12,167 nucleotides of DNA from the IMG/VR virus record IMGVR_UViG_2744054912_000005, one strand, 5' to 3'. Numbering within the stretch: position 1 is the first letter of the stretch; each line of letters starts with the position of its first letter. The notes under the pieces are model-generated. The model was not told the DNA's origin. It saw nothing but the letters and a program-made list of their open reading frames with translations, and ran no database searches. This stretch comes from a virus (lineage: Duplodnaviria; Heunggongvirae; Uroviricota; Caudoviricetes). Of the stretch, positions 126-10,799 are shown in pieces. A program made the translations under genes and the position numbers.

Positions 126-1076
126 TATCAGCTCCAACTGAGAGCCATACTTTTCTTCAAATACCACGGTATCCGCATGCAGCTCGTCGTGATGCTTTCT
201 GCACAAAGGCAGCACGAAGAGGTCATGCGCTTTTGTACCCATTCCACCCTGACCGTGGCCTATCAGGTGGTGGGGATCATCTGCAGGCTTTCCACAACAT
301 GCACACGGCTGCGTCTTAACCCAGCGCGTGTACTTTTCGTTAACCCAGCGGCGACGTTTGGGACGTAACATAAAAGACTCCGGCGACTCCGGATCCACTT
401 TCAGCGCCAGCACCTTTTTCGCTTTATCCTGGATGATGCTGGTGGCAGGAACCGAAGGCACAAGGTCACTTTCCCGGGTGACAGACGGCACAACAGGCTT
501 CGGTAATCTCAGTGCCTTACGGGCTGCGCTTTCCGGTAAGGCATCCGCCAGGTCATTACGAACCAGCCACCAGCACAGTTCCGGCATTGTCACAACGTGA
601 CTGTCATCAAAACCGAGATCCCGACGCACGACAGACAACACCCAGCGGGCACAGTTATCCGTTGCCATTGATTCCAGCCGTTCCGTGAATTGATCGCGCA
701 GCTGGTTATCGCAGTGCCAGCACAGACGGATTGCGCCCGGAGCATGTCGCATTGTGGTCATGTTCTCGCTGTGCCAGCCGGAATGAGGCCACTGACAGCC
801 TTTTTCACGAAGTAACCAGCTTTCAAGACATTCCACGCCACCAGCACGACGGATCACTGCCTCATTACGGAACACGGCCCGAACGGCAGGATCATCCGCC
901 AGTGGTTGTGATGCCGCCGGAACGGCACCACTGGCAAAAGATGAATAACGTTCCGGCTCAGGCTCCAGCAGGACACGCCCCTGCATAAACAGGGGCATCA
1001 GCTCTGAACCAGGACTGAATAATACGATCCCCATACGCGGGGCAATTTCAGGGGTCAGTAGTGCTCTCACGGTCAC
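123..1076 (-). CDS. Phage nin-region protein with a C-terminal HNH-like zinc-binding motif (DUF968-like); 3' end abuts the IS3 inverted repeat, so probably C-terminally truncated
   Basis: 317-aa ORF with a C-terminal CACCGKP...HHLIGHGQGG...CRKHHDELH motif (Cys pairs plus His-His, HNH-like). GTG start at 1076 lies one base after the stop of the upstream gene (TGAgGTG); an in-frame ATG at 1034 is an alternative. The TGA stop at 123-125 is the first three bases of the IS3 terminal repeat. Confidence 0.5.
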   Translation of the reverse strand: MTVRALLTPEIAPRMGIVLFSPGSELMPLFMQGRVLLEPEPERYSSFASGAVPAASQPLADDPAVRAVFRNEAVIRRAGGVECLESWLLREKGCQWPHSGWHSENMTTMRHAPGAIRLCWHCDNQLRDQFTERLESMATDNCARWVLSVVRRDLGFDDSHVVTMPELCWWLVRNDLADALPESAARKALRLPKPVVPSVTRESDLVPSVPATSIIQDKAKKVLALKVDPESPESFMLRPKRRRWVNEKYTRWVKTQPCACCGKPADDPHHLIGHGQGGMGTKAHDLFVLPLCRKHHDELHADTVVFEEKYGSQLELI

Positions 1077-1077
1077 C

Positions 1078-1875
1078 TCAATGAACGGTATCGAGCAGCT
1101 TTAACAGCTCAGGGAATCGGGATTCGAAGAAATGCGGCTGCGTCTCGCGCGGATTTGCAGGACTGGTAATGTTCTTGCCGAACATGCAGCCTTTCGCCGT
1201 CAGCGACCAGAATTTTTTGATGTTGTTAATCGCGGTACGGCTGTATCGTTCGCGTTGTTCAACGATCCCCAGCTTCGCCATCTGGTGATATGCCTGATTA
1301 GCTGTCAGGCAGATACCATACTGCTTCAGCAGTGCACTCAGTGACAGCGTGGGGCGGCTTGAGCCATCAGGCGCGTCAGCAGGAGCATCAATGGCATAGC
1401 GCGGTGCCAGATTCGGTAAGCCAACAGCCTCCTGGAGTTTCTGACAGGCACCAAGCACTGAAGAGTTAGACAGGTTTAACTCCCGGCGCATAAAGTCCAG
1501 CAGGATCACGCCAGCCTGCATCTTGTCAGCAGCCTGCCCGGATAATTTTTCCGGTGTGCTGGTTACCATATCGAAAGTACGGATCACCTTCAGATGGAAT
1601 GACGGGCTGATCCACATTGCATAGGCATACACCAGTTCTTTGCAGACATACGTCCCTTGGTTATTTCCGCCACGAATAACGTTAACTGGCGCTATATTGA
1701 CCGAGTTGCAAATCTGCAACTCGCTTATTAAACGTTCGGTTTGCTCATTGCGGAGCCAGAATGCAGGCTTATGTTTATCCAGAGAACCGGCAGCCCTGTG
1801 CAGATCGTTCAGGCTGTAACGCCCATAAGCATCACGACGAACTTCAATACCATCAATAACCATCAGATTATTCAT
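1078..1875 (-). CDS. KilA-N domain protein (Bro-N/antirepressor-like)
   Basis: 265-aa ORF. The N-terminus MNNLMVIDGIEVRRDAYGRYSLNDLHRAAG matches the KilA-N signature (IDG..VR.D..GRY.LNDLH.A.G). ATG at 1875 is preceded by a GAGGAG RBS. Confidence 0.6.
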   Translation of the reverse strand: MNNLMVIDGIEVRRDAYGRYSLNDLHRAAGSLDKHKPAFWLRNEQTERLISELQICNSVNIAPVNVIRGGNNQGTYVCKELVYAYAMWISPSFHLKVIRTFDMVTSTPEKLSGQAADKMQAGVILLDFMRRELNLSNSSVLGACQKLQEAVGLPNLAPRYAIDAPADAPDGSSRPTLSLSALLKQYGICLTANQAYHQMAKLGIVEQRERYSRTAINNIKKFWSLTAKGCMFGKNITSPANPRETQPHFFESRFPELLKLLDTVH

Positions 1876-1894
1876 ACTTCGTTTCTCCTCTTAA

Positions 1895-2284
1895 TCAGGC
1901 GGCTGCACCCGCCGGTTTCTCGTACTTACTGATAGTGATCTCGACCTTCCCTTCCGGGATAACCGGTCCCCACTCCACCAGCATTCTTTTCACCTGACTG
2001 TCGTCTTCCCACACACCCGCGTGGGTCAGGGCGTCAAACAGCGCCTTGTTATAGTTGTCCAGATCGCGGATCCGGTTATCCGGAGGAAACAACACGATCT
2101 CCACTGAAGCAGGTGCCGACGTTGGTTTTGGCAGACGACGTAACTGCTCAACTATTGCTGCACACGCCGCGCTCTGGAATTTGCGCCCCGCCGCGCTTAT
2201 CAGGCTCTTACCAGCAAACGCCCCTTTGTTGGGGTGTCGCCAGTACGTGTTCACGCTGGGCGGAAAAGGCAGGATCAGCTTCAT
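1895..2284 (-). CDS. rusA: Holliday-junction resolvase RusA
   Basis: 129-aa ORF carrying the RusA signature DLDNYNKALFDALTHAGVWEDDSQV (compare E. coli RusA [25 protein letters not shown]). ATG at 2284 overlaps the upstream stop as ATGA. Confidence 0.85.
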   Translation of the reverse strand: MKLILPFPPSVNTYWRHPNKGAFAGKSLISAAGRKFQSAACAAIVEQLRRLPKPTSAPASVEIVLFPPDNRIRDLDNYNKALFDALTHAGVWEDDSQVKRMLVEWGPVIPEGKVEITISKYEKPAGAAA

Positions 2285-2607
2285 ACTTTCAGGCCCCTCT
2301 CATGTAACCAGTGGGCTGCACGCAGCCTGGCGTTTTCCTCACCGGCAAGCAGTGAGCGGATAATCCCGACCGCCTCGCTGTCGTCGTCCTTCACCGCGGT
2401 ATGAAGCGTTATCCCCCGTGCCACGCCACGCTTTATCGTGATGACGCCTTTTTTCTCCAGTGCGCGAAGATGCTCCACCGCTGCATTCACTGAACGGTAT
2501 CCCAGCATGGTAGCCACCTCCTGATTGGTTGGCGGGAAGCCACGTTCTTTCTGATAAGAAATCAGCATATCCAGCACCTGCTGCTGGCATTGAGTTAATG
2601 TCGTCAT
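2281..2607 (-). CDS. LexA-like winged-helix DNA-binding protein (LexA N-terminal domain only, no S24 peptidase domain)
   Basis: 108-aa ORF; LTQCQQQVLDMLISYQKERGFPPTNQEVATMLGYRSVNAAVEHLRALEKKGVITIKRGVARGITL aligns by eye to the LexA DNA-binding domain ([62 protein letters not shown]). No Ser/Lys peptidase domain follows. ATGA coupling at both ends. Confidence 0.7.
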   Translation of the reverse strand: MTTLTQCQQQVLDMLISYQKERGFPPTNQEVATMLGYRSVNAAVEHLRALEKKGVITIKRGVARGITLHTAVKDDDSEAVGIIRSLLAGEENARLRAAHWLHERGLKV

Positions 2608-3257
2608 GCCGCCATCTCCCTGACCAGTTTTTCCGCCTGCTGGCGAACCTGCGCCAGAAACGCCTCACCACATGTCTCAAGTTCATCGCGCCCGATGTAG
2701 CTGATTGCCGGTCCCTTCCAGGTCTTATCGAAAACAGCAATAGCACCAGCGAAGAACGCTCCTGTCGGCACCTGCTTCTCGTCTTTCGGGATAAACCAGA
2801 CAGGCAGTTCAAAACCAATACGCCCGCGAATAAAAGCAATATGGTCTGCATCTTCCGGCCACCACACTTCGCTGGTGGCAGCTTTGATCAGGAAAACATA
2901 GCGCCCGCCCTTATCACGCATGGCACTGGCATGTTTCATGATGTAACGCATGCCGGTGATGTATTGCCCCTCATGCTGACTGGCGCGGCTGTATGGGGGA
3001 TTACCAAAGGCAGCACCTTTAAGCTCCGCAAGACGTTCTGACCAGTCATGCGCCAGCGCGTTGTCTTCCGCCGTGTAATACGCGGCACATTTGGCGTTAT
3101 CACCGTCAGTGAACAGATCCAGAACAAACGGGCCAAACAGGGTGTTAATTCCCCAGAAAATGTTGTCCGGCGTGCGCCACTGATCGCCCACTTCCTTCAG
3201 TTCATGGGCTGGTTTGTTCCGCAGTTCCACCAGCGCCTGGCAATATTTATTACTCAT
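2604..3257 (-). CDS. Phage-type DNA N6-adenine methyltransferase (Dam family, orphan)
   Basis: FGNPPYS catalytic motif IV (N/DPPY) in a 217-aa protein. ATG at 3257 overlaps the upstream stop as TAATG; the ORF track's longer 3290 start is a GTG inside the upstream gene. Confidence 0.8.
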   Translation of the reverse strand: MSNKYCQALVELRNKPAHELKEVGDQWRTPDNIFWGINTLFGPFVLDLFTDGDNAKCAAYYTAEDNALAHDWSERLAELKGAAFGNPPYSRASQHEGQYITGMRYIMKHASAMRDKGGRYVFLIKAATSEVWWPEDADHIAFIRGRIGFELPVWFIPKDEKQVPTGAFFAGAIAVFDKTWKGPAISYIGRDELETCGEAFLAQVRQQAEKLVREMAA

Positions 3258-3745
3258 TAAGCCCCCACGTAATTCCCTGACAGATACCACTCTTCACCCG
3301 ATGCAGCGCGCTTGCTGCTTTTCCGTAAGCACCGCTCACGACGCGTCAGAAAATTGTTTCGTTCTGGCTGGGAGTGGCTTTCACGGAATGCCGCCATCCA
3401 CACGGTTGCAGCACGACGGTATAAGCCCCTGGACTCCAGTTCTTCCGCCTGGCGGGTCAGGCACAAAATCACACGGGGATCGTTAGTGCCGACATAGAAA
3501 TTGCGCACAGGTCTGGTTTCACGAACTGGTTGTGGTTCCGGTTCCTGCGCTCTCTCAGTCAGGCGCGGGAAATGTCTGCGTGTATCTCCTTCACAACGGT
3601 GAGCCACACGCCCACTCTGACGTAACTTGCTTGCTGACTGCAGAACGCGCTGCCGTGAGTAACCGGCAAAAGCATCCGCAATATCTCCGGAAGTACAGCC
3701 CGGATGGGCTTCAATGAATTTCTGAACGTCATTCAAAAGACTCAT
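3257..3745 (-). CDS. Hypothetical phage regulator: N-terminal winged-helix-like region plus C-terminal PerC/Pch-like motif
   Basis: ORF with ATG at 3745, three bases after the O-like stop and preceded by a GGGGGTGA RBS. The C-terminal LESRGLYRRAATVWMAAF resembles the PerC-family signature (L..KG.WRRAA..W) as I recall it. Assignment is tentative. Confidence 0.45.
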   Translation of the reverse strand: MSLLNDVQKFIEAHPGCTSGDIADAFAGYSRQRVLQSASKLRQSGRVAHRCEGDTRRHFPRLTERAQEPEPQPVRETRPVRNFYVGTNDPRVILCLTRQAEELESRGLYRRAATVWMAAFRESHSQPERNNFLTRRERCLRKSSKRAASGEEWYLSGNYVGA

Positions 3746-5037: not shown

Positions 5038-5585
5038 GCGTTAGTTTCTCCACAGTCACGACACGCCACGGCGCCCGGAGCTGCACACTCGCGGGCGTCA
5101 TTACTTTCTGAAATGCAAAAAATTTTGTAGACCAGTGCTGCATGCTCCTGCAGCTTCGAAATTGAGAGGTACAGCTCATCGTTAATTGCTGTCTTCTCAT
5201 GCGGTTCCACTACACCGTCTTCAATTGCTGAACGAATCTGTTTTGAATAACTGCCGATCTGTTCAATGACCTCCAGCAGGCGTTGGTTGATATCGGCGTT
5301 GTCCACATCCTCGACATCAGGAAGAGACACAAAGACGCCATTTGCAGACTGCGCCACAGCGTCAGCAATGAAGTGAGTTCCACCAGCACGTTGCAAAATC
5401 ATTGCCCATCCCAGCGGGAAAATCTGATCGCCATCGGCACGAAGGCGGTTAAATAATGCGTTCTCTGTTACATCCAGCCAGTCAGCAGCTTCAGCGTACC
5501 CCCCCGGCAACGCTGCGATAGTTTTTCTGACAGCTTTCACGTACCACTCAGGCTGTTTTTCTACTTTCCAGTGATGCTTACCCAC
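5034..5585 (-). CDS. CII-like/YdaT-like early regulatory protein (tentative)
   Basis: 183-aa ORF immediately downstream of the Cro-like gene, with GTG start at 5585 preceded by a strong AGGAGG RBS. Position and size fit the cro/cII (YdaS/YdaT) module; no motif verified. Confidence 0.4.
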
Positions 5586-5838
5586 GGTTCACCTCCTGTT
5601 CCTGTGGTTTAAACCCATTCTGGTTTTGGCTAGATTGAAAACGTGCCGGATAAAGAATCTGCATTTCGCTGACTTCACCCTTAAAAAAATTGGCTAAACG
5701 TTCTGCAAGCTCGATAGATGGAATCTGCTCCAGCCTCTCAATACGACTCAACGTCGCTGGATTGACTTGAACACCCGCAGCAACATGCTGCAAAGTGAAA
5801 CCATGCGCCTTACGCACATTTCGTAATGGTGATTGCAT
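5578..5838 (-). CDS. Cro-like HTH (XRE family) transcriptional regulator
   Basis: 86-aa ORF with HTH signature LRNVRKAHGFTLQHVAAGVQVNPATLSRIERLEQIPSIELAERLANFF. Divergent from the cI-like gene across an operator-rich region. RBS GGAGG before ATG 5838. Confidence 0.7.
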   Translation of the reverse strand: MQSPLRNVRKAHGFTLQHVAAGVQVNPATLSRIERLEQIPSIELAERLANFFKGEVSEMQILYPARFQSSQNQNGFKPQEQEVNRG

Positions 5839-5935
5839 ATGCCCTCCAAATATTGCGCGTTATGCATGTTATTTCACGCAATTATTTTGCGCAAGTTGAT
5901 TTGCTTATCACGCAATAAAGAAATGTAATAAACGC
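5839..5935. promoter_or_regulatory. OR region: divergent PR/PRM promoters with TTGC-N7-GCAA operator sites
   Basis: Operator-like 15-mers TTGCGCGTTATGCAT (5853-5867) and TTGCTTATCACGCAA (5901-5915) plus the palindromic core TTGCGCAA (5887-5894). Candidate PR for cro on the minus strand: -35 TTGCGC (5894..5889), 17-bp spacer, -10 TAACAT (5871..5866). Confidence 0.6.
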
Positions 5936-6628
5936 ATGAACATAGGAAACCGAGTCAGACAACTTCGCCAAGCGAAGAACATGAAAATCGCCGATCTCGC
6001 TGAAGCAATAGGAGTAGATGCGGCGAACATCTCGCGCTTAGAAACGGGTAAGCAAAAACAATTTACCGAACAAACACTGAGTAATATTGCCAAGAGCTTA
6101 GGTGTTGATATTGCTGATCTCTTTACCTCTGCCCACAAAAGTAATACTGTATATAAAAACAGTAATAATGAGGATGTTGCGCAGGTGAAGGATGTGTTCC
6201 GTATTGAAATGCTGGATATCAGTGCCAGTGCGGGAAATGGCCTTATCCAGGGCGGTGATGTCATTGATGTGATTCATGCCATCGAATACAGAACTGATAA
6301 TGCTGTATCAATGTTCGGCGGACGACCAGCCAATCACATCAAAGTTATCAACGTTCGTGGGGACAGTATGTGTCCAACCATTGAGCCAGGAGATCTCATC
6401 TTCGTTGATGTCAGCATCAATCAGTTTGATGGTGATGGTATATATGTCTTTGGTTTTGATGACAAAATATACGTTAAAAGACTTCAAATGATTCCTGACA
6501 AACTGCTGGTGATTTCTGATAACCAGATTTACCGTGAATGGGGAATTACTAGCGAAAACGAACACCGATTCATGGTCTTTGGAAAGGTCTTAATCAGTCA
6601 GTCGCAAACCCTTAAGAGACATAATTAA
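5936..6628 (+). CDS. Phage CI-type repressor (N-terminal XRE HTH, C-terminal S24 LexA-like autopeptidase domain)
   Basis: 230-aa ORF. HTH NRVRQLRQAKNMKIADLAEAIGVDAANISRLETGK; candidate Ala-Gly cleavage site in ISASAGNGL; catalytic Ser in VRGDSMCPTIEPGDLIFVD and Lys in IYVKRLQ, as in LexA and lambda CI. Confidence 0.9.
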   Translation: MNIGNRVRQLRQAKNMKIADLAEAIGVDAANISRLETGKQKQFTEQTLSNIAKSLGVDIADLFTSAHKSNTVYKNSNNEDVAQVKDVFRIEMLDISASAGNGLIQGGDVIDVIHAIEYRTDNAVSMFGGRPANHIKVINVRGDSMCPTIEPGDLIFVDVSINQFDGDGIYVFGFDDKIYVKRLQMIPDKLLVISDNQIYREWGITSENEHRFMVFGKVLISQSQTLKRHN

Positions 6629-6647
6629 CCTCAATATCCCATCCATC

Positions 6648-6670
6648 GGCCACCGAAAGGTGGCTTTTTA
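6648..6670 (+). terminator. Intrinsic terminator downstream of cI
   Basis: GGCCACC-GAAA-GGTGGCT hairpin (6-7 bp stem, GAAA tetraloop) followed immediately by TTTTT, 20 bp after the cI stop. Confidence 0.8.
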
Positions 6671-6682
6671 TTACCTATAAAT

Positions 6683-6733
6683 TTGCATATATCGCAAATA
6701 TCACTTGCATATCTCGCAATTTAATTTTATCTT
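6683..6733 (+). promoter_or_regulatory. OL/PL-like region: two 15-bp palindromic operators and a candidate rightward promoter
   Basis: TTGCATATATCGCAA (6683-6697) and TTGCATATCTCGCAA (6705-6719), centre-to-centre 22 bp, sharing the TTGC-N7-GCAA form of the OR sites. Candidate promoter: -35 TTGCAT (6705-6710), 17-bp spacer, -10 TATCTT (6728-6733). Confidence 0.6.
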
Positions 6734-6889
6734 TTGTTCCAGACCAACTACAGGATTACAACAAAATCTGGTTGCAACACGGTGCATGTGTCGTAAGCAG
6801 TCAGTAAATGTCAAAAACGAACAGGCAGGACGCCCACGAAGTAGCCGCCTGGGGCATATGAAGTCCAGGATGATTCGTTAGCAACAAAA

Positions 6890-6922
6890 AAGCGCCCTAC
6901 AGGACGCTTAGCTCTTTAACAA
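6890..6922 (+). promoter_or_regulatory. nut-like antitermination element: short hairpin followed by an rrn-type boxA
   Basis: GCTCTTTAACAA at 6911-6922 is identical to the E. coli rrn boxA core (TGCTCTTTAACAA). It is immediately preceded by an imperfect hairpin AAGCGCC-CTACA-GGACGCTT (6890-6909) and lies about 45 nt upstream of the first early-left gene. Confidence 0.55.
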
Positions 6923-6967
6923 TCTGGTCCCCATCAACAAGTAACTGATAACTTGAGGAGATGTGAA

Positions 6968-7174
6968 ATGCACAAAACAGAACCCAAAATCGTCGCGCCT
7001 GGCTACACAGATGAGGAAATTTATGAGTGGATGACAAAGAAGCTGGCAGCTATAAACCAGCTTCGTGAAGTGCTGTCTTATCGACAGGAAACAATAGACT
7101 CCTTAAAAAAACTGGATCAGGAAATCACGGTTTTATCACAGGATGTTACTTTAGATATTGTGCAGACAAATTAG
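6968..7174 (+). CDS. Hypothetical 68-aa protein (first gene of the early-left transcript); no recognisable domain
   Basis: ATG at 6968 preceded by GAGGAG at 6955-6960; the TTG at 6953 in the ORF track is a less likely start. Predicted helical, charged protein MHKTEPKIVAPGYTDEEIYEWMTKKLAAINQLREVL... in an AT-rich segment. Confidence 0.55.
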   Translation: MHKTEPKIVAPGYTDEEIYEWMTKKLAAINQLREVLSYRQETIDSLKKLDQEITVLSQDVTLDIVQTN

Positions 7175-7580
7175 GATCCCATTCATTTTCGTCAAAATCA
7201 TCAAAGTGATGAATTTGTGATCTCCAGTCTCGATAATCTAAAAATTTCTGGGCGGTTACGCTTATTTTATCAAGTGTGAGTTCATCCTGAATTGAAAGAA
7301 GAAGTTCATCAAATTTCATCTCATTAATCTGTTTTGGCATCCAGTGATGCTTCATCAGAATAAGGTGAACCAGAGCCTTTTTCCCATTCAATTGATTATA
7401 GGGAGTGCCGAATTTCTTCCGGTGCTCATGTAAGACAAGGTCCAAAAGAGTAAGTAATGTTGCCCTTGATTCAACTTTGCTTATTTCGACTGATGACACT
7501 ACCCCACTGATTTCAATGCCCCGATACTTTCCAACATTTTCACAGTGGGATTTGTACAGCGTATAGATATTACCGGACAT
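7146..7580 (-). CDS. Hypothetical 144-aa protein, antisense to the early-left transcript; no recognisable domain
   Basis: ATG at 7580 with RBS AAGGA upstream. AT-rich. The 3' end overlaps the convergent 68-aa gene by 29 bp (7146-7174). Soluble, with no transmembrane segment evident. Confidence 0.55.
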   Translation of the reverse strand: MSGNIYTLYKSHCENVGKYRGIEISGVVSSVEISKVESRATLLTLLDLVLHEHRKKFGTPYNQLNGKKALVHLILMKHHWMPKQINEMKFDELLLSIQDELTLDKISVTAQKFLDYRDWRSQIHHFDDFDENEWDPNLSAQYLK

Positions 7581-7595
7581 TTCTTTTCCTTTTGC

Positions 7596-7645
7596 GTTGT
7601 TGGGGATAACCAGATTAACCGAATCCTTGTTGTTGGGGAATAACT
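7596..7645. repeat. Two direct copies of a 15-16-bp motif (GTTGTTGGGGATAAC / GTTGTTGGGGAATAAC) upstream of the 144-aa gene
   Basis: Seen directly at 7596-7610 and 7630-7645, spacing 34 bp, within 20-65 bp upstream of the 7580 start codon on the minus strand. Confidence 0.5.
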
Positions 7646-7864
7646 AGGTCCACCTCGCCTGATGTGGCTAAAAGCAGGCACATAACAGCTAAGTATTTTC
7701 AACCAGAGAGAATCCTTAGCGTTGTGGTGAATGCGGCTCAGCGCACGCGGGTTAAGGTTGAGGCTGACAGTCGACCTTCTGTGGATACCCACCCGCCTGG
7801 TGTGCAACCTTCGCCAGGCACCGGGAGGCACCCGGCACCACAACTTTATGCTGTGTGTAGTCCT

Positions 7865-7912
7865 GGCGGTACCAGTTTGTACCCTTGCTTCCGGCTGGTA
7901 CCGTCCTTTTTA
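7865..7912 (+). terminator. Intrinsic terminator-like hairpin with T-run at the end of a GC-rich non-coding stretch
   Basis: CGGTACCAG (7867-7875) pairs perfectly with CTGGTACCG (7895-7903), extendable to 7865/7905, followed by CTTTTTA (7906-7912). The 19-nt loop contains further GTACC self-complementarity. Confidence 0.55.
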
Positions 7913-8000
7913 CAAAACAGAGAAGAGCATCACCGGACGACGGGCTCATAACCCAATCCATCCGGGCGGCTGCCACCGCAGGTGTTCTTCTCTGTTTTGT
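7912..8000 (+). other. Long hairpin / inverted repeat: 18-bp stem (17 Watson-Crick pairs plus 1 G-U) enclosing a ~50-nt GC-rich loop
   Basis: ACAAAACAGAGAAGAGCA (7912-7929) is complementary to TGTTCTTCTCTGTTTTGT (7983-8000) with a single G-T wobble. It lies in non-coding sequence between the terminator-like hairpin and the YfdR-like gene. Confidence 0.5.
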
Positions 8001-8124
8001 GGAGAAACTAACCGCCCCTACGGGGGCATTTATGGAAATGTAATTGACTCAATAATCGCCGGACGGTGATGGCTTCCTTTTACCCGAATTCAGCGCGGTG
8101 CAGCGCATATACGTGGAGAACAAA

Positions 8125-10723: not shown

Positions 10724-10799
10724 TGGTGCCGATAATAGGAGTCGAACCTACGACCTTCGCATTACGAATGCGCTGCTCTACCAACTGAGCTATATCGGC
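10724..10799 (-). tRNA. thrW: tRNA-Thr (anticodon CGU)
   Basis: Minus-strand sequence GCCGATATAGCTCAGTTGGTAGAGCAGCGCATTCGTAATGCGAAGGTCGTAGGTTCGACTCCTATTATCGGCACCA folds as a cloverleaf with anticodon loop TTCGTAA (CGU), T-loop GGTTCGACTCC and 3' CCA. It sits beside proA as thrW does in E. coli. Confidence 0.9.

Follow-up and report, generated by a model that had tools for sequence, protein, structure and literature searches.

A conserved convergent gene pair in the cargo slot of lambdoid prophages and its proposed function

Two convergent genes that overlap at their 3' ends, here called A and B, very probably constitute a real and conserved two-gene accessory ("moron") module of lambdoid prophages. 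We describe the pair from IMG/VR record IMGVR_UViG_2744054912_000005; the whole stretch of 12,167 nucleotides that was analysed is referred to below as the window. The pairing, the convergent overlap and the fixed orientation of the two genes are recorded nowhere in the family entries, in the genome annotations we saw or in the literature we searched. The pair appears to be a variant within a known kind, the accessory or exclusion cargo of prophages, and its function is put forward here as a proposal.

Results

The locus and its two genes

The prophage is lambdoid, of the SfV/SfII/SfIV/e14-like type, and is inserted at tRNA-Thr (thrW); the window comprises its early and integration end. The features used in this study are the following.

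5578-5838, minus strand: cro
5936-6628, plus strand: cI
6648-6665: terminator of cI
6683-6697 and 6705-6719: OL-type operators, two copies of TTGCATAT(A/C)TCGCAA, matching the OR operator at 5901-5915
6705-6733, plus strand (rightward): candidate PL-type promoter, TTGCAT-17 nt-TATCTT, hexamers read by eye
6890-6909, minus strand: intrinsic terminator of leftward (B-sense) transcription, with an 8-bp stem and then TTTTTTGTTGC, just beyond the start of A
6911-6922, plus strand: Nus-factor site boxA, GCTCTTTAACAA, on the PL transcript
6968-7174, plus strand: gene A, 68 aa, acidic (pI 4.8), phrog_1744
7039-7064, minus strand: terminator-like hairpin for the B transcript, antisense within the A coding sequence
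7146-7174: 3' overlap of A and B, 29 bp
7146-7580, minus strand: gene B, 144 aa, predicted soluble and all-alpha, NF033230 / phrog_5286
7596-7649, minus strand: right edge of the cargo slot, preceding B; contains CCCCAACAAC twice as a direct repeat and is 93-98% identical to loci with other cargo
7650-8025: GC-rich conserved block, with yfdR, xis and int rightward of it
7691-7913, plus strand: STnc100/PasD-family sRNA-like element ending in a hairpin and U-run, within the conserved flank
10724-10799: tRNA-Thr, with proA adjoining

The open reading frames agree with the initial annotation, which had described a 68-aa gene on the plus strand and a 144-aa gene on the minus strand that converge with a 29-bp overlap in an AT-rich segment; the GC content is 0.36-0.41 over about 6900-7650 and 0.48-0.55 in both flanks. 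The 144-aa gene had also been read as antisense to a PL-type transcript. We arrive at the same reading because the plus-strand cI, the cI terminator and then two operators matching the OR operator precede the pair. The repetition of the OR operator sequence (5901-5915) at these sites suggests that the PL-type promoter fires rightward from about 6705-6733; a consensus promoter scan did not call this candidate. Both genes are called by PGAP in a near-identical E. coli locus (WP_000549623.1 and WP_000016389.1). We found no paper that names WP_000016389 or WP_000549623, the DefensePredictor supplements contain neither these proteins nor ECs1072, and our searches for prophage-defence screens and for SfIV yielded nothing on genes A and B.

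Gene A

A and B are real protein-coding genes under purifying selection, with Nei-Gojobori dN/dS values in the non-overlapping parts of 0.08-0.42 for A and 0.08-0.27 for B. A starts at an ATG at 6968 with GAGGAG 8 nt upstream (the list of open reading frames starts at a TTG at 6953, which gives 73 aa), and B is preceded by AAGGA. The A protein matches phrog_1744 over residues 1-68 of 68 (E = 6e-35), and the family as a whole extends across two PHROGs, phrog_1744 (10 members) and phrog_3501 (28 members). A search with a profile of four A sequences brought up relatives in Serratia, Salmonella, Klebsiella, Citrobacter, Arsenophonus and Xenorhabdus. In the predicted structure (pLDDT 90.5) the N-terminal segment is extended and residues 15-60 form a single long helix; there is no membrane-like segment and no DNA-binding domain.

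One could suppose that A is a chance open reading frame opposite the 3' UTR of B, since it is short, overlaps the region of the B terminator and was skipped by gene callers in some loci (L093 and Sakai). However, dN/dS falls to 0.08 in the non-overlapping part, and P6, E16 and W21 of an N-terminal motif are invariant in 36 sequences from several genera. Together with the good ribosome binding site, the confident helix model and the presence in two PHROG families, this leaves the chance reading barely credible.

In L009, L096, L099 and most A-family members the overlap contains a palindrome, TGGGATCCCA, that encodes W-D-P in both proteins; around it the tail of A reads ..LSFPWDPSP and B reads ..EWDP... 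The equivalent place in the window is 7170-7182, where A stops just ahead of the site (TAG at 7172-7174) and the tail is missing. In L093, three tandem copies of ATCAGAAAACGACTGAT (about 3640-3700) lie directly upstream of the A homologue.

Gene B

B belongs to the NCBIfam family NF033230, 'ECs1072 family phage-associated protein', with a score of 157.8 bits over residues 4-144 against a cutoff of 70, and it matches phrog_5286 with E = 1.5e-90, as do 51/51 of its aligned relatives. An exhaustive phmmer search gave relatives in 65 clusters at 50% identity, mostly 145-155 aa in length. In the alignment of 51 sequences (residue numbers include Met1), H72 and W134 are invariant, R54 is conserved in 98%, and L64, G66, A69 and W80 in at least 90%.

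The initial annotation had recognised no family for either protein. This holds for Pfam, which has no match for A or B and no consistent match across either family alignment, and for PADLOC-DB 2.0.0, where neither protein hits any family at E <= 1; however, B belongs to NF033230/phrog_5286 and A to phrog_1744. These entries, like phrog_3501, are names only ('hypothetical equivalog', 'unknown function'), and a function is assigned in none of them. The profile and Foldseek searches that had been suggested as a check gave the same picture, with no match in Pfam, PADLOC or the PDB and with profile matches to families of unknown function alone.

The model of B is a compact all-alpha domain (pLDDT 95.7, pTM 0.90). 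Sequence searches of the PDB with B and with the B profile returned nothing, and the best Foldseek hits of the model had E = 0.79 (PDB) and E = 0.86 (BFVD), so that the modelled fold appears to be one that matches neither a solved nor a viral predicted structure. The protein has a near-neutral pI and no membrane-like segment (maximum Kyte-Doolittle 19-residue score 0.84). HEPN domains carry the motif Rx4-6H. We found in B neither a HEPN nor an HD fold combined with the corresponding catalytic motif (Rx4-6H or H..HD..D), and its resemblance to the HD, HD-GYP and HDOD helical domains is a weak one of fold only.

The namesake of the family, ECs1072 (now ECs_5703), is a distant homologue of B without the conserved R54 and the otherwise invariant H72. 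A microarray table (PMC2241611) lists detectable expression of the gene in Sakai grown without induction, with regulation by growth phase, and this one table was all that we found on ECs1072 in the literature.

Conservation of the pair

The two genes travel together, a point that the initial annotation had proposed to check. Full-length A is present in 81 of the 82 IMG/VR loci that carry B, and among 5426 complete E. coli genomes 414 contain the DNA of A and 421 that of B (about 8%). The pair is also present in isolated phages, including SfIV, Kati, vB_EcoS-569R4 and vB_EcoM-689R6. In other genera, convergent pairs whose B is about 30-38% identical to that of the window occur in Xenorhabdus (L090/L103), Serratia (L009), Salmonella (L093, L096-98) and Citrobacter (L099-101), and also in L110. 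The genome scan yielded three loci, and the viral scans with single proteins few or none.

In every pair found, the two genes lie on opposite strands and converge, with A sense and B antisense to the lytic operon. The overlap is 29 nt in the window, 74-113 nt in L009, L090, L093, L096, L099 and L103, and about 95 nt in L110 (read from the coordinates of the open reading frames); the sole lineage lacking a 3' overlap is L109, which has an A-like gene that does not reach B. At least two positions in the prophage genome are used. The pair is located just downstream of the repressor gene and PL in the window, L004, L090, L103 and L110, and between the Q antiterminator and the holin in L009, L093, L096 and L099. 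Tentatively, a third position lies between a cII-like gene and O in O157 Sakai Sp4 (L111), where ECs1072 (14361-14816, minus strand) is antisense to PR and faces an unannotated plus-strand open reading frame (14168-14677) that has the A N-terminal motif and a weak match of 12 bits.

Other genes occur near some of the pairs. Citrobacter L099-L101 carry a second antisense cassette between Q and the A/B pair (1424-2832, minus strand; a DUF6731 protein and a 159-aa protein), and a DUF6731 gene is also found near the pair in L094. In Xenorhabdus-type prophages a CsrA-family gene adjoins the pair (L090, 2-169; L103, 3714-3911).

A few loci depart from the rule. L005 and L091 have B but no partner of the A family, and the neighbours of the latter include no phage genes; in the subgroup L095/L108, B faces a different convergent partner; in L102 (Arsenophonus), A is found without an intact B. 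In L004 (E. albertii), A is frameshifted and B intact, and A is 98% but B 72% identical to the window, which places a breakpoint inside the cassette. In L006 the values are 75% for A and 100% for B, the low value for A reflecting a frameshifted, low-quality metagenome sequence.

These exceptions could be taken to mean that A and B are independent accessory genes that are merely neighbours, A being a small lytic protein that acts on the host in the manner of cIII or Kil, and B an unrelated moron. Each gene is found without the other (L005, L091, L102), and breakpoints fall inside the cassette (L004, L006). However, the same convergent layout recurs in at least seven diverged lineages and at two or three genome positions, pairwise divergence in A goes along with that in B (r = 0.81, Mantel p about 0.001), and the terminator of B is encoded within A. 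The recurrent geometry argues against two unrelated neighbours, an explanation that we consider unlikely. As for A itself, an analogue of cIII or Kil is improbable because A is also found in late operons downstream of Q.

Transcription signals around the pair

The initial annotation had placed a nut-like site ahead of the pair, and part of that site stands. The boxA at 6911-6922 is an exact 12-mer that matches the rrn boxA consensus; nowhere else in the window does it occur, even with one mismatch allowed (chance expectation 0.07), and it is kept in L004, L006 and L104-L106. The hairpin at 6890-6909, however, which was probably counted into the site, is a leftward terminator. On the minus strand it folds with -11.5 kcal/mol and is followed by UUUUUU, whereas the plus strand gives -7.5 kcal/mol, a centroid of -3.9 and an imperfect stem. 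As it is stable on the minus strand only, we rejected it as a boxB. The same terminator is kept in loci with other cargo and thus belongs to the slot, not to the cargo.

Compared with lambda N/nut antitermination, the PL transcript carries a boxA, whereas neither a plus-strand boxB hairpin nor an Arg-rich N-terminal motif in the first PL product was found. A was rejected as an N-like antiterminator, since it is acidic and lacks the Arg-rich motif. On the PL transcript, an exact boxA comes just after a hairpin that folds well on the minus strand only, with no N-like gene following. This arrangement may point to antitermination of the early-left operon by Nus factors, independent of N.

The hairpin at 7039-7064, inside A, has a folding energy of -15.6 kcal/mol (z = -4.56) on the B strand, and similar B-strand hairpins are found inside A in L009, L093, L096 and L099. 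In the late-operon versions of the pair, A-sense terminators bracket the module. The suggestion that convergent transcription tunes the pair fits these signals, because terminator-like hairpins of the B strand both inside and just beyond A indicate that convergent transcription is built into the design. As to an own promoter of the kind expected for a moron, a scan for consensus promoters in the DNA ahead of B, run on the window and four other lineages, performed no better than on shuffled sequence and gave no consensus sigma-70 site; expression has been seen just for the distant homologue ECs1072.

Opposed transcription across an overlap raises the alternative of an addiction module in which a toxin-antitoxin pair keeps the prophage stable, either with B as toxin and A as a labile proteic antitoxin, as in type II systems, or as a type I-like antisense pair formed by the 3' tail of B and the A mRNA. 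A small, acidic, helical protein beside a larger globular partner would suit such a module, as would the strict co-occurrence in E. coli, and the convergent 3' overlap recalls the type I systems txpA/RatA and bsrG/SR4 of Bacillus prophages, the antisense overlap being provided here by the 29 bp shared by the two open reading frames and by the B-strand terminators at 7064-7039 and 6909-6890. However, the genes lie on opposite strands and are not co-transcribed as in a type II operon, A has no DNA-binding domain, and neither protein matches a toxin-antitoxin family in Pfam or PADLOC. B is also neither small nor hydrophobic, as type I toxins are, and the purifying selection on A shows that it is protein-coding and not just an RNA. 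Several loci have B alone, and A is frameshifted beside an intact B in L004. The solo B genes, one of which has no phage genes among its neighbours, speak against an obligatory relationship of toxin and antitoxin, and taken with the convergent layout they argue against a classical pair of this type, which we regard as quite unlikely.

The cargo slot

The position occupied by the pair is a cargo hot spot, as the initial annotation had surmised: SfV, SfII and other E. coli prophages (L104-L107) carry different genes between the same flanks. Relative to SfV and SfII, conservation covers 6813-6879 on the left and 7650-8025 on the right, and the intervening 770 bp give way to other genes, orf33 (98 aa) in SfV and SfII_36 (63 aa) in SfII. 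Compared with the E. coli prophages L104-L106, the flanks reach inward to 6927 and 7596, which assigns the boxA, the leftward terminator and the stretch ahead of B to the slot and leaves 6928-7595 as the cargo proper. We presume that a leftward cargo promoter is located at 7596-7649 or further right.

The alternative cargo includes single antisense hypothetical genes of 170, 171, 167 and 81 aa. In five of the six other cargo versions sampled the annotated genes are antisense to PL, orf33 of SfV being in sense orientation. In L106, an unannotated 97-aa open reading frame with a ribosome binding site (438-731, plus strand) faces the 167-aa WP_000357060.1 (571-1074, minus strand) with an overlap of 161 nt. 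The expectation that known defence systems would replace the pair elsewhere was not borne out, as none of the six sampled cargo proteins has a PADLOC (2023) match, and the sampled cargo therefore provides no guilt by association with defence. The slot has the features of a site for morons, with variable content between conserved flanks, a dip in GC content, a leftward terminator and cargo that is dispensable in related phages.

A motif, (T)CCCCA(A/T)CAAC(AAG), occurs upstream of both genes, at 6928-6941 on the plus strand and at 7626-7639 / 7594-7607 on the minus strand. As it has the same orientation relative to A and to B, it forms an inverted repeat that brackets the cargo, and similar sequences lie at the left cargo boundary in L105 and L106, which carry other cargo. 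It may be a scar left by recombination or have a regulatory role; a conserved regulatory role was rejected, as the motif was not found in the distant pairs.

The content of the slot also bears on the possibility that the pair is a regulatory device for phage development, in which B or antisense transcription would throttle PL, PR or late read-through, with effects on the sRNA, xis/int or lysis genes further along, and A would lift the block. The pair always heads a lytic operon, just after a boxA or a terminator, and in the window it lies just upstream of the STnc100-like sRNA. However, the closely related phages SfV and SfII are without the pair and have other genes at the site, which means that the pair is dispensable for development, and structure comparison revealed no recognisable DNA- or RNA-binding fold in A or B. 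A regulatory role of this kind thus strikes us as decidedly improbable.

The adjacent sRNA-like element

The element at 7691-7913 matches Rfam RF02076 (STnc100) over the whole model with 43.1 bits (E = 3.5e-8), the gathering score being 47. STnc100 and PasD are related prophage sRNAs (bioRxiv 10.64898/2026.05.13.724894). This element is the structured region that the initial annotation had seen adjacent to the pair, and it is part of the conserved flank rather than of the pair. Elsewhere open reading frames are annotated over it, 'ymfH' in e14 and a 'frameshifted hypothetical protein' by PGAP; these are probably spurious readings of an RNA gene. A segment of about 150 bp (7864-8017), comprising the 3' part of the element and a 25-nt inverted repeat (7912-7936 / 7976-8000), supplies most of the matches that a 1471-bp query (6630-8100) finds in 2819 of the 5426 complete E. 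coli genomes. In those genomes the segment is usually unannotated, and it is spread far wider than the flanks.

Discussion

A proposed mechanism

Our working proposal, to which we give somewhat less than even weight, casts B as an effector with a transcript of its own and A as the antagonist that counters it in the lytic phase. In its favour are the coding nature and family membership of both genes, the retained pairing with correlated divergence, the constant orientation to lytic operons, the B-strand hairpins in and beyond A, the swappable and mostly antisense cargo of the slot, the expression of ECs1072 in uninduced Sakai, and the shapes of the two proteins. Against it count the promoter scans of B, the loci with B and no A-family partner or with A and no intact B, the frameshifted A of L004, and the sampled alternative cargo that matches no PADLOC model. 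B would be transcribed leftward, against the lytic operon, from its own promoter in the conserved right flank, and would probably be expressed in the lysogen. Its transcript would stop at the hairpins inside and just beyond A, so that the 3' tail of the B mRNA would be antisense to A. A would be the first open reading frame of the lytic transcript, which is the PL transcript here, the late transcript downstream of Q in other prophages and possibly the PR transcript in Sakai. Being first on that transcript, A would be made only when the lytic promoter fires. Firing of the lytic promoter would then shut B off through head-on transcription and through RNA pairing across the overlap, and the long acidic helix of A would probably bind B directly. 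The conserved Arg, His and Trp residues of B would fit a site for nucleic acid or a phosphate ligand. B would most likely benefit the lysogen, for example by excluding or aborting other phages, and would be silenced during the phage's own lytic growth. The fuller interpretation, a two-component prophage immunity or exclusion system in which B is a new all-alpha effector and A is wired to the lytic promoters, and thus a defence that switches itself off, is possible but on the doubtful side.

Comparison with known systems

Exclusion genes located beside the immunity region that the prophage itself must evade are known from lambda and P22, where sieB is accompanied by the escape function esc, and from the Salmonella prophage BTP1, where BstA is accompanied by the aba element. 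The likeness to A and B is one of analogy: an accessory gene lies beside cI and PL, and the logic proposed here would likewise combine an effector of the lysogen with an escape for the resident phage. However, neither sieB nor BstA has sequence or profile similarity to A or B, and the proposed escape factor of the present pair would be a separate convergent gene on lytic promoters rather than an in-frame product or a DNA element.

Overlapping antisense units are also well known. The oop RNA of lambda is encoded opposite cII, and txpA/RatA and bsrG/SR4 are type I toxin-antitoxin pairs with a 3' overlap. Like the A/B pair, these are convergent units with overlapping 3' ends that leave room for RNA-RNA pairing and transcriptional interference; in A/B, however, both partners are conserved proteins, and B is a soluble domain of 144 aa and not a small membrane peptide. 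RexAB of lambda resembles the pair in being two-gene cargo beside the repressor gene of a lambdoid prophage. RexAB, however, shares the transcript of cI and includes a membrane protein, RexB, whereas A and B are convergent, both are soluble, and they have no match in Pfam or PADLOC.

Significance

Slots beside the immunity region have yielded the exclusion and defence systems Rex, SieB and BstA. About 8% of complete E. coli genomes carry the module described here, as do functional phages of Shigella and E. coli (SfIV and Kati, for example), and it has relatives in prophages of Salmonella, Citrobacter, Serratia and Xenorhabdus. Its layout is unusual in that one gene is read with the lytic operon and the other against it, with the terminator of the second gene inside the first. 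If the pair has no phenotype, it would be one of many conserved morons. If B is an effector and A its lytic-phase antagonist, the biology of prophages and their hosts would gain both a protein family and a regulatory design that are new. Should an exclusion that switches itself off prove true, it would offer a general answer to the question of how the abortive defences of prophages spare their own phage.
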